A program made the position numbers and the translations under genes. Positions 21,191 through 52,362 of a stretch of DNA of 64,000 bases are shown here, one piece after another. The notes under the pieces are model-generated. The model had not been told where the DNA came from. It did not search any database and saw only the letters and a program-made list of their open reading frames with translations. Every line of letters starts with the position of its first letter. The stretch's first letter is position 1. Source of the DNA: an uncultured Candidatus Saccharibacteria bacterium (lineage in GTDB: Bacteria; Patescibacteriota; Minisyncoccia; Phycocordibacterales; UBA9973); the NCBI GenBank assembly GCA_964423445.1, contig CAYREQ010000003.1:821-64820 (forward strand), given 5' to 3'.

Positions 21191-21235
21191 AACTTGAAGT
21201 AAGTATATACTAAGTAGGTTCCTTTTAAAAATTAA

Positions 21236-21415
21236 AGATTTGATTGGGGAAACTGGTTAGAATCCAGTACAGTGCCGCTACGGTATGTCCCGATTTGCTA
21301 AATGGCGAATCGAGGAACAAGTCCGAATACCAATCATTTTGTTATTTTATTAGTCCCGAGCAGGAAACCTTCTTTTTAAAAGAAGCTTCAATTCTGCACG
21401 AGCAGAATTTTTTTA
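21236..21415 (+). ncRNA. cobalamin (B12) riboswitch with terminator expression platform
   Basis: GGGGAAACTGGTTAGAATCCAGTACAGTGCCGCTACGGT matches the conserved GGGAA..GGTnnnAATCC....CnGnnCCGCnACnGT core (B12-box-like GCCGCTACGG). It is followed by the ttctgcacgagcagaa hairpin and a T7 run directly before the ATG at 21419. Confidence 0.6.
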
Positions 21416-30801: not shown

Positions 30802-30969
30802 TTATTTAGCTGAATGCTCTTTGCTAAATTTAACTCCAATATAATAGGGCCAAATTATCAAAGCGAGGACTCCTTTCCAGAAAGAAAGGTGTAGGTAGCC
30901 TATAGAGAAAAGCCAGCCTATTGCCCAAAGTGTGCCAAATACATCTTGATTTATAATTATTGGTTTCAT
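30802..30969 (-). CDS. small membrane protein (55 aa), paralog 1
   Basis: Not in the ORF track (under 60 aa). It translates to MKPIIINQDVFGTLWAIGWLFSIGYLHLSFWKGVLALIIWPYYIGVKFSKEHSAK and shares the WLF(S/T)IG(Y/F)L.L(S/T)FWKGVLAL..WPY motif with the 32950..33111 product. Confidence 0.4.
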   Translation of the reverse strand: MKPIIINQDVFGTLWAIGWLFSIGYLHLSFWKGVLALIIWPYYIGVKFSKEHSAK

Positions 30970-30978
30970 ATATATATT

Positions 30979-31863
30979 CTACTTTATTTTTGCTATTTTT
31001 TCAACAACAGAATCTTTGATATCTTCCAAGAAAAGCTGTAAGTGTGGGAAAGCTATTTCTATATCTGCCTCGTCTAGTGCATGTTTTACTTCTTCGGTTA
31101 CTGCAAAGTGTATCCTCCTCTCGATAGACGCATCCCCTATCCAGACACGAACTTGAAGCTTTACGCTAGAATCTGCTAGCTCATCTGCGACTACGTCGGG
31201 GGCTGGATTTTTCAAGACACCATCTATCTTTGAAACTTTTGCGAGTATCGCTTCTCTCGCTTTTTCTATGGATTCTTTGTATGCAATACCTACAGAGACC
31301 ACTATTCTCGTGTCTCCATTTGTAGTGTGGTCTACCAATATATCATTTATTATTTTCTGGTTTGGTATGACTACATAAGTATTATCTTGAGTTCTAATTC
31401 TAGTACTTCGTATTGTAATCTCTTCTACGCGACCATACTCATTTTGATATGTGAGATAATCTCCTACTCGGAAAGGCTTGTCTATAAAAATCAAAAAGCC
31501 GGCTATGACATTTGATAAAGCGTCTTGGGATGCAAAACCTATGGCTATACCGACGACTCCGACTCCAGCCAAAGCTGAAGATACATTGAAGCCGAGCTGT
31601 TTGGCTATGGTCACTATCGCGAGGACCCCTAGAATGACTCTAAGTATTACGTCTATGATATTTATCAGAGCTTTTTCAACACGGAATTTTCTGAGGATAA
31701 AATTGAACGGAATAGAAATTATGAAATATAAAATCGTAAAAGAAATCAATACCAAGAAAGACCCAAAAATATTTGGCAACATTTCTATGATCTTTGCTTT
31801 TAAAACCATAGGCTCTAAATTAAAGAAAAATTTTGACATATTTTTATTGTAGCAATTTTGCAC
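30979..31863 (-). CDS. small-conductance mechanosensitive channel (MscS family)
   Basis: N-terminal TM helices followed by a conserved MscS beta-domain (FRVGDYLT...GRVEEITIRSTRIRT). Confidence 0.75.
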   Translation of the reverse strand: MQNCYNKNMSKFFFNLEPMVLKAKIIEMLPNIFGSFLVLISFTILYFIISIPFNFILRKFRVEKALINIIDVILRVILGVLAIVTIAKQLGFNVSSALAGVGVVGIAIGFASQDALSNVIAGFLIFIDKPFRVGDYLTYQNEYGRVEEITIRSTRIRTQDNTYVVIPNQKIINDILVDHTTNGDTRIVVSVGIAYKESIEKAREAILAKVSKIDGVLKNPAPDVVADELADSSVKLQVRVWIGDASIERRIHFAVTEEVKHALDEADIEIAFPHLQLFLEDIKDSVVEKIAKIK

Positions 31864-31874
31864 TAAATCTCAAA

Positions 31875-32456
31875 TTATTTTGACCTAGCGTTCTTTAAAG
31901 CATTACTCCACCATAAAAGCTGAGTAATCATACTCTTAGCCTTTTCAGTATACTTTGCAAAAAGTTCTGCTGGTGTACCTTGGCCAAACAATACTGGGAA
32001 ATATAATTCACCATTTATATTTATAGATTCTCGTATTGGAGACATTTGTAATTCTATAGCATTGAGGCGTAACTGCTCTACAGCCCGTGCACCACCTACA
32101 GTACCGTAACTCACAAAAGCCACTGGCTTGTTGTTCCATTCTTGGTATACCCAATCAAGAGCATTTTTTAATACTGCTGTAGTACCACGATTGTATTCTG
32201 GGGTGACTATCACATAAGCATCTGCTTCAGCTATCTTTGTAGTAAAACGAGCCACGGCTTCATTTTTATATGGTTCTGTCTTGTATGATGGACTGACTGC
32301 CTCATTGAAAAATGGCATCTCGTAATCTCGTAAGTCTAATACTTCTACTGTTACATCTGTCTCTTTCTTTAATTCTTCAGCTATCCAAGCTCCGGCTTTA
32401 TCACCAAAGCGACCCTCTCTAGTACTACCTATTATTACTTTTATATTGTGTGACAT
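31875..32456 (-). CDS. NAD(P)H-dependent FMN reductase (ChrR/YieF-like flavodoxin fold)
   Basis: The KVIIGSTREGRFGDKAGAWI N-terminus is typical of the NADPH-FMN reductase family. Confidence 0.65.
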   Translation of the reverse strand: MSHNIKVIIGSTREGRFGDKAGAWIAEELKKETDVTVEVLDLRDYEMPFFNEAVSPSYKTEPYKNEAVARFTTKIAEADAYVIVTPEYNRGTTAVLKNALDWVYQEWNNKPVAFVSYGTVGGARAVEQLRLNAIELQMSPIRESININGELYFPVLFGQGTPAELFAKYTEKAKSMITQLLWWSNALKNARSK

Positions 32457-32477
32457 AATTTTTTTTAAATATTAATT

Positions 32478-32780
32478 TTATAATTTATTTTTTTTAATTT
32501 CGTTTGGGCAAATTTGTTCAGAGAGACGTTTTAGGAGCCCTACTGTGTGCTCGGTATTTAGTGTGTATAATACTTCTTGGCCACGCTTTTCATCATTTAC
32601 TAAACCTGTCTCTTTTAATACTCGAAGATGCTGGGAAACCAAAGGCTGAGAGAGCTTTGTCTTTTTTACAAGCTCATTTACTGTTTTCGGACCAGAAAAC
32701 AGAGCTTCAATAATATGATATCGGGAGGTATTACCTATACCCTTCCCGAATTTTTCCATGTCATCGCATAAACTTCCCAT
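32478..32780 (-). CDS. ArsR/SmtB family transcriptional regulator
   Basis: Winged HTH: YHIIEALFSGPKTVNELVKKTKLSQPLVSQHLRVLKETGLV. Confidence 0.65.
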   Translation of the reverse strand: MGSLCDDMEKFGKGIGNTSRYHIIEALFSGPKTVNELVKKTKLSQPLVSQHLRVLKETGLVNDEKRGQEVLYTLNTEHTVGLLKRLSEQICPNEIKKNKL

Positions 32781-32949
32781 ATAAATATATTAGCATATGC
32801 TTATATGATATGCAAATAAAAAAAGCTTCTATTTATTTTCGTAAGAAATTATCATCTCGGTCAGGCTGGGTAACCAATATTTTTGAGTGACTAGTAACCC
32901 AAGACCGATGATTATCAATATAAATAAAAATATTCTAATGGCTTTCATA

Positions 32950-33111
32950 TTAACCAATGATAGAAAATGCCAAGCCTAAAAAGTATGGCCAGACGAATAA
33001 TGCGAGTACACCTTTCCAGAAAGTAAGCTTTAAAAATCCTATAGTAAAAAGCCACGCCATAATCCAGACACCTCCTGTAAACAAATTGTTTTCTATTTTA
33101 ATTTTTTGCAT
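32950..33111 (-). CDS. small membrane protein (53 aa), paralog 2
   Basis: Not in the ORF track. It translates to MQKIKIENNLFTGGVWIMAWLFTIGFLKLTFWKGVLALFVWPYFLGLAFSIIG, paralogous to the 30802..30969 product. Confidence 0.4.
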   Translation of the reverse strand: MQKIKIENNLFTGGVWIMAWLFTIGFLKLTFWKGVLALFVWPYFLGLAFSIIG

Positions 33112-33132
33112 ATATTAATTATATCAAATATA

Positions 33133-33435
33133 TTATTCCTTTTCCTCTCCCCACTGCCATCTAGGCTTTTCACCTTTTTTATAACAGATATAAATCAGTG
33201 CCACAGAATAAGCGATGAGTCTCGGTGCAAAAACAATGAGCGTATCACTAGCGGAGTGCTGTGTAGCATCAATCATCTTAAAACTATATACCAAGACTAA
33301 TACATAGATTAAAATCACTACCCAGCCCTGCCATTTTACTGGTGTCCAGCCCCAGCCATACAACTTTCTCTTAAACCAATATCCTTTTGGATTGTTGGTA
33401 AAATATTTATGCCATTTTTCAAAAAGTTCTTTCAT
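33133..33435 (-). CDS. small Trp-rich membrane protein
   Basis: Has YGWGWTPVKWQGW, then a TM helix, then a second hydrophobic segment; no known family assigned. Confidence 0.3.
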   Translation of the reverse strand: MKELFEKWHKYFTNNPKGYWFKRKLYGWGWTPVKWQGWVVILIYVLVLVYSFKMIDATQHSASDTLIVFAPRLIAYSVALIYICYKKGEKPRWQWGEEKE

Positions 33436-34508: not shown

Positions 34509-34579
34509 TGGGAGATCGTCTAATGGTAGGACAACAGGTTCTGGTCCTGTTTATCTAGGTTCGAGTCCTAGTCTCCCAG
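34509..34579 (+). tRNA. tRNA-Gln (anticodon CTG)
   Basis: Cloverleaf: acceptor TGGGAGA/TCTCCCA, D-arm GTCT..GGAC, anticodon stem ACAGG/CCTGT with loop TTCTGGT, T-arm CTAGG-TTCGAGT-CCTAG, discriminator G. No CCA is encoded. Confidence 0.8.
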
Positions 34580-40131: not shown

Positions 40132-40202
40132 AGCCGAAGATGGGAATCGAACCCATGTTTCTACTTTACGAAAGTAAAGTTCTGCCACTGAACTACTTCG
40201 GC
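40132..40202 (-). tRNA. tRNA-Thr (anticodon CGT)
   Basis: Reverse complement folds as GCCGAAG-TA-GTTC..GAAC-T-TTACT-TTCGTAA-AGTAG-AAAC-ATGGG-TTCGATT-CCCAT-CTTCGGC-T. Confidence 0.8.
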
Positions 40203-40209
40203 TTTATCG

Positions 40210-40284
40210 TGGAGCCGTTGGTGGGAATTGGACCCACGCTCTCCATATTACCAATATGGTGCTTTACCACTAAGCTACAACGGC
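40210..40284 (-). tRNA. tRNA-Thr (anticodon GGT), CCA encoded
   Basis: Reverse complement is GCCGTTG-TA-GCTT..AAGC, anticodon arm CCATA-TTGGTAA-TATGG, T-arm GTGGG-TCCAATT-CCCAC, then CAACGGC-T-CCA. Confidence 0.8.
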
Positions 40285-40397
40285 GTACTTAAAACATAGT
40301 AGTGTATTTACCCTTATTTTGCAAAAATAAAAACACTAGAATTATTCTAGTGTTTTTCTGCGCGACTTAGAAGACTGTATTAAAATTATATTTATTA

Positions 40398-40766
40398 CTA
40401 TTTTTTAAAATAACTTTCATTACCTAAAAACGTAACTTGAAATCCATTTACTAATGCCACCATATGGGAATGTTTTGACTGGGACGGACCACAATAATGA
40501 ACTAAACTATCAATATTTATTTCAGCCAGCCTCTTTATAAATTCTTTTATATCTTTTTTGTCCCCTACTACGTCTATATCATGCTCTGTATAACCTCTAT
40601 TCTTTAAACCACCAACAATAAAAAGATTGAGTCCAGATAAATGTGGTTCAATTTGATCAAGTGTAATTTTTTTATATTTCTTTCCAAGGAGGTTGGTCAA
40701 CCCGTGACCAAAGACTCTTGAACCAAAATAACATAACTTACACGAATAAGAATTACTATTTGACAT
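40398..40766 (-). CDS. hypothetical protein (start trimmed to internal ATG to avoid tRNA-Asp)
   Basis: The ORF-track start at 40796 would overlap tRNA-Asp. The internal ATG at 40766 (MSNSNSY...) is more plausible. A weak nucleotidyltransferase-like hG[GS]...DIDVV pattern is present. Confidence 0.3.
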   Translation of the reverse strand: MSNSNSYSCKLCYFGSRVFGHGLTNLLGKKYKKITLDQIEPHLSGLNLFIVGGLKNRGYTEHDIDVVGDKKDIKEFIKRLAEINIDSLVHYCGPSQSKHSHMVALVNGFQVTFLGNESYFKK

Positions 40767-40769
40767 CTG

Positions 40770-40844
40770 CGCGATCGACCGGACTTGAACCGGCAACCTC
40801 TTCCGTGACAGGGAAGCGCTCTAACCAAATTGAGCTACGACCGC
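40770..40844 (-). tRNA. tRNA-Asp (anticodon GTC)
   Basis: Reverse complement is GCGGTCG-TA-GCTC-AATTTGGTTA-GAGC-G-CTTCC-CTGTCAC-GGAAG-AGGTT-GCCGG-TTCAAGT-CCGGT-CGATCGC-G. Confidence 0.8.
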
Positions 40845-40890
40845 ATAAAGACTATTATACATAAAAACGCCTAATTTCAAAGCATTTTTG

Positions 40891-40964
40891 TGTCGGCGGG
40901 AGGAATCGAACCTCCGACCTTGGGCTTATGAGTCCCACGCTCTAACCGTCTGAGCTACGCCGAC
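40891..40964 (-). tRNA. tRNA-Met (anticodon CAT; elongator Met or lysidine-modified Ile2, not initiator)
   Basis: Reverse complement is GTCGGCG-TA-GCTC-AGACGGTTA-GAGC-G-TGGGA-CTCATAA-GCCCA-AGGTC-GGAGG-TTCGATT-CCTCC-CGCCGAC-A. The paired G1-C72 argues against an initiator tRNA. Confidence 0.7.
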
Positions 40965-46803: not shown

Positions 46804-46877
46804 TCCGTCCTCTTGGATTCGAACCAAGGACCCCAGAGGTATAAGCTCTGTGCTCTAACCAACTGAGCTAAGGACGG
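46804..46877 (-). tRNA. tRNA-Ile (anticodon TAT)
   Basis: Reverse complement is CCGTCCT-TA-GCTC-AGTTGGTTA-GAGC-A-CAGAG-CTTATAC-CTCTG-GGGTC-CTTGG-TTCGAAT-CCAAG-AGGACGG-A. Anticodon loop positions 34-36 are TAT. Confidence 0.7.
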
Positions 46878-51869: not shown

Positions 51870-52266
51870 GGGGATGCAAGGCATAGACAGTAGGCCTATT
51901 TGTATTGATGCATACCGAGTATGTACGTAATCTCGTAAAAATTCGTACAAATGTTAATTGCAAAATTGACTTCTAAAGTAAAAGCTTCAGCTTCTCCATA
52001 CTTCGGTATGAAGGACTTTGCTTTTGCTCCAGCTTTCGCGTAAGCCAAGCTGGTGTCTATCTTATAGACTTCCGATATATAAGAATAGGCAAAATATTAT
52101 CGGGATAAGGCGTTATCCGCTCGAATATACGCACTAAAACACAGAGCTAGATTAAGGGATATTTGGCGCACTTAAGAATTCTTTAATTTAAACAAAAAAG
52201 TGTGCTAAGTATGTAGATTTCAATATAATAACCTTCTGCACGGGGATTCAATTTCCCCCATCTCCA
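51870..52266 (+). ncRNA. ssrA: tmRNA (SsrA)
   Basis: The 5' GGGGATG pairs with the 3' CATCTCC-A (discriminator). The T-arm is GGGGA-TTCAATT-TCCCC. The internal reading frame GCA AAA TTG ... GCT TTT GCT CCA GCT TTC GCG TAA (tag ending ...FAFAPAFA*) is preceded by a CTCGTAAAAATTCGTACAAATG context resembling E. coli PK1. It lies directly downstream of smpB. Confidence 0.65.
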
Positions 52267-52362
52267 CAGATTTCATAAAAAACCTCTTTTGGTTGACTTT
52301 TAAACCTAAATAAGCTATATTTTAACTAGTTTCAGGTACTTAGCCTGCTACATTTATACCAA

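Follow-up and report, generated by a model that had tools for sequence, protein, structure and literature searches.

Two small membrane protein genes and the genes between them

The DNA analysed here is a stretch of 64,000 nucleotides (nt) from an uncultured Candidatus Saccharibacteria bacterium (positions 821 to 64,820 of contig CAYREQ010000003.1), referred to below as the window. It encodes two short, related open reading frames (ORFs) on the minus strand, which we call copy A and copy B. Together with the three genes that separate them, they form a tight array on one strand:

30802 to 30969, minus strand: copy A, 55 amino acids (aa), MKPIIINQD...WAIGWLFSIGYLHLSFWKGVLALIIWPYYIG-VKFSKEHSAK; A-type hairpin with a charged C-terminal tail
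30979 to 31863, minus strand: mscS (Pfam MscS)
31875 to 32456, minus strand: NADPH-dependent FMN reductase (Pfam FMN_red)
32478 to 32780, minus strand: arsR, an ArsR-type regulator (Pfam HTH_5)
32950 to 33111, minus strand: copy B, 53 aa, MQKIKIENN...WIMAWLFTIGFLKLTFWKGVLALFVWPYFLG-LAFSIIG; B-type hairpin with a hydrophobic C-terminal end

Upstream of copy B are genes for a PhnB-like protein, a DUF2231 protein and a 100-aa Trp-rich protein, and downstream of copy A is an ABC transporter. A preliminary description of this DNA had placed the two ORFs at the same coordinates and in a common orientation, with identical translations, and its assignment of mscS, chrR-like (FMN_red) and arsR genes to the interval is supported by Pfam. 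It also regarded the two ORFs as paralogs with a conserved core. In agreement with this, copies A and B align by BLASTP over 50 residues with 27/50 identities (54%), 78% positives and E=2e-19, a similarity that, judging from the alignment, is far above chance level. When a hidden Markov model (HMM) of the family was run against all ORFs of at least 35 aa in the window, A and B were the sole copies, with nearly equal scores (92.3 and 92.2 bits; E about 4e-27). The term "unannotated", used in the preliminary description, is correct only relative to its 60-aa ORF cut-off, as both NCBI and Logan records carry gene calls for the exact A and B sequences (72,290-bp contig).

A widespread family under purifying selection

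Relatives of copies A and B are numerous. A word-indexed search with B returned 345 homologs, nearly all of 50–60 aa, an exhaustive phmmer search with A yielded 402 clusters at 50% identity (E<=1e-3), and pattern scans located relatives in no fewer than 246 species-representative genomes and 556 metagenome stretches. The family occurs in Patescibacteria, Acidobacteriota, Gemmatimonadota, Elusimicrobia and other phyla, and its members are 60–75% identical across phyla. All homologs are stand-alone proteins (40–130 aa) with no fused domains. Domain fusion was considered for the longer members and rejected: their upstream starts are mis-called and the canonical Met is internal. Below, relative loci are numbered with the prefix L and homologous proteins with the prefix P.

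Members of the family are named only "hypothetical" in public records, and no Pfam domain is precomputed for any of the 120 listed homologs of B. Neither A nor B has a match at E<=1 in Pfam-A (hmmscan) or NCBIfam, and nothing significant was found in PHROG or PADLOC (best matches PADLOC PDC-M48A, E=0.012, and PHROG, E=0.16). No relative of either protein was found in the PDB by sequence-profile or fold similarity, and full-text literature searches did not find a description of the family. We conclude that this is a widespread bacterial family without a curated model, structure or name, and outline it here. A conserved bacterial small membrane protein without an assigned function is in itself a familiar kind of thing. 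Length cut-offs routinely miss small membrane proteins and most remain uncharacterised; the family definition offers annotators a model.

The reading frame is strongly constrained. In a codon alignment of 91 genes, diversity at codon positions 1, 2 and 3 is 0.317, 0.171 and 0.600, and the proportion of nonsynonymous differences is below that of synonymous differences (pN<pS) in 100% of 4,095 pairs. The closest comparison is with L012, from a Saccharibacteria metagenome-assembled genome (MAG) in which the B ortholog is 96% identical. For B the nonsynonymous rate (dN) is 0.024 and the synonymous rate (dS) 0.945 (dN/dS 0.025); for A the values are 0.067 and 0.59 (dN/dS 0.11). We saw no frame-shifted or stop-interrupted orthologs in close relatives, and no dN/dS near 1. 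The dN/dS comparison proposed in the preliminary description thus indicates purifying selection, and its suggestion of a real, selected small membrane protein family is borne out by the hundreds of homologs, the uniform pN<pS and the hairpin model described below. Judged by these substitution patterns, A and B are genuine genes, and strong purifying selection acts on the frame as called.

The opposite view, that A and B are chance ORFs or a non-coding repeat without a conserved frame, draws on the shortness of both ORFs and on a same-length ORF that mirrors B almost exactly on the other strand:

32957 to 33118, plus strand: antisense ORF, 53 aa, same length as B

Against it, hundreds of homologs keep the frame, third-position variation dominates, and the antisense frames, including the mirror of B, are closed in 72/91 homologs. 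We give this view a negligible chance. Because the matching antisense frames carry stops in most homologs, the antisense ORF is, on sequence grounds, a by-product of the AT-rich sense gene B.

Architecture, conservation and topology

The preliminary description had noted a two-helix core. For B, AlphaFold2 on the basis of 61 aligned sequences models a helical hairpin (helices 10–26 and 31–52) with a mean predicted local distance difference test (pLDDT) score of 81, and according to this model the product is a two-helix integral-membrane hairpin. The family core reads G13-x2-W16-x3-W20-L-F-T-I-G25-[FY]-L-x-L-x-F-W-K-G34-V-L-A37-x3-W41-P-Y-x2-G46, and the motif W16..W20-L-F-[TS]-I-G..L.L.F-W-K-G-V-L-A...W-P-Y..G is present in both A and B. 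Among 424 distinct sequences, residues 20–37 around the turn (W-L-F-T-I-G-[FY]-L-x-L-x-F-W-K-G-V-L-A) are near-invariant, and W41, P42, Y43 and G46 are 97–100% conserved; W16, W20, F22 and G25 served as the filter anchor for these sequences; in the alignment before filtering, their conservation was at least 90%. The positions that vary are 15, 17, 18, 38–40 and 47–48.

Preceding helix 1 is a motif, I-[KR]-[IV]-E-[QN]-H, in which E is found in 78% and H in 67% of members. At the E-x-H position copy B reads ENN and copy A reads NQD, so that the His is absent in both. In a minority of members E-x-H is replaced by His- or Cys-rich tails (HWHKHHHKHH, HWHKHHHKHHKGGYHGG, CSCGKHHHKRWHGGHGGC, RCGCRSICEC), and 19% of members have at least two Cys/His in the 14 residues preceding helix 1. 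Members with such termini include:

His-rich N-terminus: P0170, P0189, P0192, P0194, P0238, P0258, P0266
Cys-rich N-terminus: P0180, P0203, P0219, L170:4744-4923

Counts of K+R are higher on the termini than in the loop, both for the A-type (4.1 vs 1.3) and for the B-type (2.4 vs 1.1). Because the termini are the more positive in both subtypes, both are predicted to be N-in/C-in.

Two ancient subtypes

Two subtypes can be distinguished. A-type proteins have an MxxIIIN start, an IGY motif and a charged KF[SH]xE..K tail, whereas B-type proteins start with MxKIKIE[NQ]H, have an IGF motif and end in a short hydrophobic stretch. Copy A scores 44.7 bits higher with the A-type than with the B-type HMM. 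All two-copy loci encode one A-like and one B-like protein (with the pair in L170 weakly typed), and in most of them the genes are neighbours:

L014, L037, L061: B then A, adjacent, with gaps of 12, 9 and 4 nt
L018, L024: A then B, adjacent, with gaps of 14 and 1 nt
L170: adjacent pair, 32 nt, weakly typed, HMM score differences of -4.0 and +4.6 bits
L026: A and B, 4.5 kb apart

Between A and B of the window dN is 0.46 and dS is saturated. As far as sequence divergence can tell, A and B represent two subtypes of ancient origin, often recurring as tandem neighbours, and are not recent duplicates.

The contig with loci L026 and L006 (JAMPXW010000002.1), which carries A-type and B-type genes, belongs to a MAG titled "Burkholderiales bacterium". 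Its AT-rich upstream regions and neighbour genes resemble Patescibacteria loci. An error in the taxonomic label or in the binning of the contig is possible.

A three-gene unit within an A/B pair

The age of the pair bears on how the locus is read. The features of the interval between B and A are:

30979 to 32780, minus strand: arsR-FMN reductase-mscS block, outside the microprotein family; between B and A only in this lineage
32787 to 32806, no strand assigned: palindrome ATATTAGCATATGCTTATAT (core AGCATATGCT), an inverted repeat and candidate ArsR autoregulatory operator
32829 to 32957, minus strand: hydrophobic ORF, 39–42 aa, MKAIRIFLFILIIIGLGLLVTQKYWLPSLTEMIISYENK; starts 1 nt past the B stop

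The L012 locus shares the arrangement of the window, with the three-gene block between B and A. L014 is partly syntenic, having pyrG (87.5% identity) and a second neighbouring gene in common with the window; there, B and A are 12 nt apart with no arsR, FMN reductase or mscS between them. The palindrome overlaps a promoter-like site (TTGCAT-N17-TAATAT) directly upstream of arsR, and this palindrome/promoter-like sequence is kept in L012. It may mark where a separate transcription unit begins between B and A. The simplest reading of these sequences is that the tandem arrangement of B and A is split in this lineage by a three-gene unit with a promoter of its own. We favour insertion of the block here over its deletion elsewhere because tandem A/B pairs exist in several lineages.

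The preliminary description had taken A and B as a flanking duplication that suggests a cassette, that is, the borders of a mobile or acquired element with mscS, FMN reductase and arsR. The paralogs do bracket three genes in a shared orientation, and the block is missing from the related loci L013 and L014, which implies a lineage-specific insertion or deletion. Against a cassette, the A/B divergence is old and each copy has subtype orthologs in other lineages, with insert-free adjacent A/B pairs in five other loci. DNA similarity between A and B is confined to 80 nt at 73%, wholly within the coding cores, with nothing in the flanks and no terminal or near-identical border repeats. GC content is flat (0.31–0.40) across the block and its surroundings with no anomalous composition, no transposase or integrase is nearby, and no plasmid or phage copies of the family were found. 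We consider the cassette very improbable, and the interpretation as an ancient A/B pair with an independent three-gene unit corrects it for the window.

The 39–42 aa ORF sits in an insertion of about 107 nt between the B stop and the arsR promoter, and this insertion is missing in L012. The ORF has no family match in Pfam, NCBIfam, PHROG or PADLOC and no gene call in the Logan records, and it is probably not a conserved gene.

Candidate promoters and possible leaderless expression

Candidate promoters were identified directly upstream of both copies:

30970 to 31004, minus strand: candidate A promoter, TTGAAA-17 nt-TAGAAT-6 nt-ATG, inside the 3' end of mscS; 10/12 matches in a consensus scan
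33112 to 33126, minus strand: candidate extended -10 of B, TGATATAAT, then 6 nt (TAATAT) and ATG, within the 21-nt gap past the upstream gene

The -10 arrangement of copy B is identical upstream of the B ortholog in L014. Among the family genes of loci L007–L091 (n=90), a -10-like hexamer, often TATACT or TATAAT, ends 6–8 nt before the ATG in 44, with no other distance represented by more than five cases. Only 8/90 have a Shine-Dalgarno-like motif. This leaderless-type spacing is found in AT-rich Patescibacteria and GC-rich Acidobacteriota alike. In control genes of the same loci the spacing peak is lower, with 12% when measured from the called start and 18% when a generous test allows any start; the family is enriched about 3–4-fold over these genes. 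The pattern suggests that leaderless transcripts are common in these genomes, and that A and B may belong to this class, as a pattern match only. Since A has its own candidate promoter, this also suggests that it need not be under ArsR control. The leaderless signature agrees with the lack of operon partners described next.

Genomic neighbourhood and possible partners

When 636 neighbours from 83 loci were clustered by BLAST, none of the families occurred in more than six loci. We defined operon-like partners as genes on the same strand, within two genes and separated by gaps of no more than 120 nt. A Pfam scan of 145 such partners revealed no dominant family, PspC and Cupin_2 being the most frequent with five each, and 19/82 loci lack any operon-like partner. 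We therefore rejected a conserved operon partner, the neighbours being too scattered. In raw counts, genes for small PspC-domain proteins take the operon-like position more often than any others, at about 6 of roughly 150 loci (five in alignment A3 and L147:5169-5366).

Some neighbours could point to an envelope or membrane-stress factor tied to PspC-domain proteins, mechanosensitive channels and stress genes. PspC is a joint-top operon-like neighbour (5/145, plus the one in L147), mscS adjoins A with a 9-nt gap, mscL adjoins P0015, a B-type homolog, with an 18-nt gap, and genes for HSP20, Usp, OsmC, MsrB, glutaredoxin and LemA/M48 proteins occur nearby. Each association is rare, however: PspC reaches about 4%, and of 154 loci (about 1 Mb in total) two have MscL within 5 kb and none beyond this lineage has MscS, on which grounds a mechanosensitive-channel partnership was rejected. 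The PspC and other counts are raw, uncorrected for background. We regard a stress role as improbable.

In a different proposal the protein would handle metal, with the cytoplasmic N-terminal E-x-H or His/Cys-rich tail as the binding site and with a link to the ArsR/SmtB-type sensor in the window. The conservation of the E-x-H motif, the 19% of members with Cys/His before helix 1 and the tails listed above are in its favour, as are occasional neighbours such as ArsR-type regulators (window, L006/L026), CDF (L006), VIT1 (L007), YbjQ_1 (L095) and a P-type ATPase (L025). Against this, the window copies are without the His, and the genes beside the His/Cys-rich members (TspO, PspC, a K+-channel-type protein, a hydrolase) are not metal genes. 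Nor is ArsR control implied, given that A apparently has a promoter of its own. We found no consistent linkage to ArsR or metal transporters, with an ArsR homolog near a family gene in 1/154 other loci. Metal handling seems to us as improbable as the stress role.

Also present next to B is the Trp-rich gene to which the preliminary description drew attention as a third small membrane protein:

33133 to 33435, minus strand: Trp-rich membrane protein, 100 aa

This protein is real and is unrelated to the A/B family (hhalign probability 0.2%). It has 1,839 homologs, mostly of about 100 aa and from Patescibacteria, which make up a separate large family without a Pfam model. Homologs of it occur near A/B-family genes in L023, L081 and L098.

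Comparison with known small membrane proteins

KdpF, CydX, AcrZ and MgtS have one transmembrane (TM) helix, occur in narrow lineages and are encoded beside their partners. The family resembles them in being shorter than 60 aa, integral to the membrane, constrained on helix surfaces and often below ORF-length cut-offs, and differs in having two helices, in spanning several phyla at 60–75% identity and in lacking a conserved neighbour. Like these proteins, it could assist, as a small subunit, a larger conserved membrane protein or complex whose genes lie elsewhere in the genome. Extreme conservation on nearly all helix faces near the turn and the cross-phylum identity would both fit tight packing against a conserved partner. 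On the other side, the neighbourhood holds no conserved partner gene, the genes of known accessory microproteins usually lie next to those of their partners, and the patchy phylum distribution matches no obvious universal partner. We consider the accessory role unlikely.

The pairing of subtypes recalls SMR pairs (EbrAB/YdgEF) and Fluc/CrcB pairs, which have four TM helices and opposite K+R biases and form antiparallel dimers. Two diverged small membrane paralogs, frequently encoded by adjacent genes, are common to these systems and the family; the family has two helices, and both of its subtypes have the same charge bias. An antiparallel or dual-topology heterodimer was rejected, as K+R is higher on the termini in both subtypes.

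Class II holins and pinholins are proteins of about 55–70 aa with two TM helices, an N-in/C-in topology and a charged C-tail, sometimes with a regulator paralog. A lytic or toxic pore former, either as a class II holin/antiholin pair or as a type I toxin, would account for the small size, the two predicted helices, the predicted N-in/C-in topology, the occurrence of gene pairs and the charged C-tail, although the last is found on the A-type only. The family, however, has no phage or prophage context: there are 2 matches in 2.9 million viral contigs and 0 in 50,697 phage genomes, no family matches in plasmid and phage collections, no PHROG match and no endolysin neighbours. No lysin-type Pfam family recurs among the operon-like neighbours (Peptidase_M23 in only 2/145), and the strong cross-phylum conservation is unlike that of holins or type I toxins. 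A lytic or toxic function is thus very unlikely. The two relatives in the viral collection are in L092 (IMGVR_UViG_3300032132_000439, 55% identity) and L093 (IMGVR_UViG_3300010052_000188, 45%).

PLDc_N (PF13396) and DUF2892-type hairpins are likewise stand-alone, about 50–60 aa long, and have conserved Trp, Pro and Gly in the second helix; the family differs from them in having no Pfam-A match at E<=1 and in its motif, WPY[YF]LG as opposed to P-x-G-x3-Y. A superficial likeness to the pore loop of K+ channels (T-[VI]-G-[YF]-G, Ion_trans_2) lies in T-I-G-[FY], with a Trp-rich helix before it and an aromatic-basic turn after it. The K+-pore candidate was rejected. The second Gly of the loop is Leu, there are only two helices with no outer TM helix, TIGF lies inside helix 1 of the AlphaFold2 model, Ion_trans_2 is not matched in Pfam, and hhalign against a genuine Ion_trans_2 protein gives 0.3%.

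Proposed function

Copies A and B belong to a family of membrane hairpins with two ancient subtypes, which, as we consider likely, acts as an autonomous membrane unit. The protein would insert N-in/C-in, with the short loop and its aromatic FWK at the outer membrane face, and the near-invariant block of residues 20–37 around the turn would be the functional surface. It may form small oligomers, of B alone in most genomes and of A and B where both are present; we hold this step as possible, while leaning against it. The unit itself could be a small pore or an outer-leaflet binding platform, as opposed to an accessory subunit of a neighbour's product, and would usually be expressed from a dedicated promoter as a leaderless mRNA. 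A self-assembling (A/B) membrane oligomer is our best guess, made with low confidence.

Several points weigh against these interpretations. A-type genes are often alone within 10 kb (L098, L102, L111, L112, L123, L159, L166) and most loci are B-type only, hence A/B pairing is not obligatory. The subtype boundary is blurred in distant members, and 52 sequences are ambiguous. The topology is predicted from the positive-inside rule, and the lack of a conserved neighbour leaves room for a partner encoded elsewhere. Promoter-like matches in the region number 19, compared with 22.7 in shuffled sequence, and leaderless-type spacing is also common among other genes of these genomes.

A more specific version of the autonomous unit is a long shot: a 53-residue leaderless hairpin that would self-assemble, from B alone or from A and B together, into a minimal pore or a ligand-binding ring of the outer leaflet. 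The nearly invariant aromatic turn W20-LFTIG-[FY]L-x-L-x-FWKG would serve as the functional site, with gating or ion binding tuned by the variable N-termini (E-x-H or His/Cys-rich). If true, these proteins would be among the smallest conserved channel- or receptor-like units in bacteria, and enriched in uncultivated lineages.

What distinguishes the family is a protein of 53 residues with 60–75% identity across phyla, a dN/dS of about 0.03–0.1, two stable subtypes often found in company and a preference for leaderless-type starts. In a protein with no name, curated family or structure, this combination suggests a membrane function that is important and self-contained, above all in Patescibacteria, where reduced genomes rarely keep dispensable genes. 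The strong cross-phylum conservation, the A/B pairing and the leaderless bias make the family a good candidate for experimental follow-up.

Other features of the window

Rfam models identify the following RNAs elsewhere in the window:

21199 to 21352, plus strand: cobalamin riboswitch
34509 to 34579: tRNA
40132 to 40964, minus strand: cluster of four tRNAs
46804 to 46877: tRNA
51870 to 52269, plus strand: tmRNA gene

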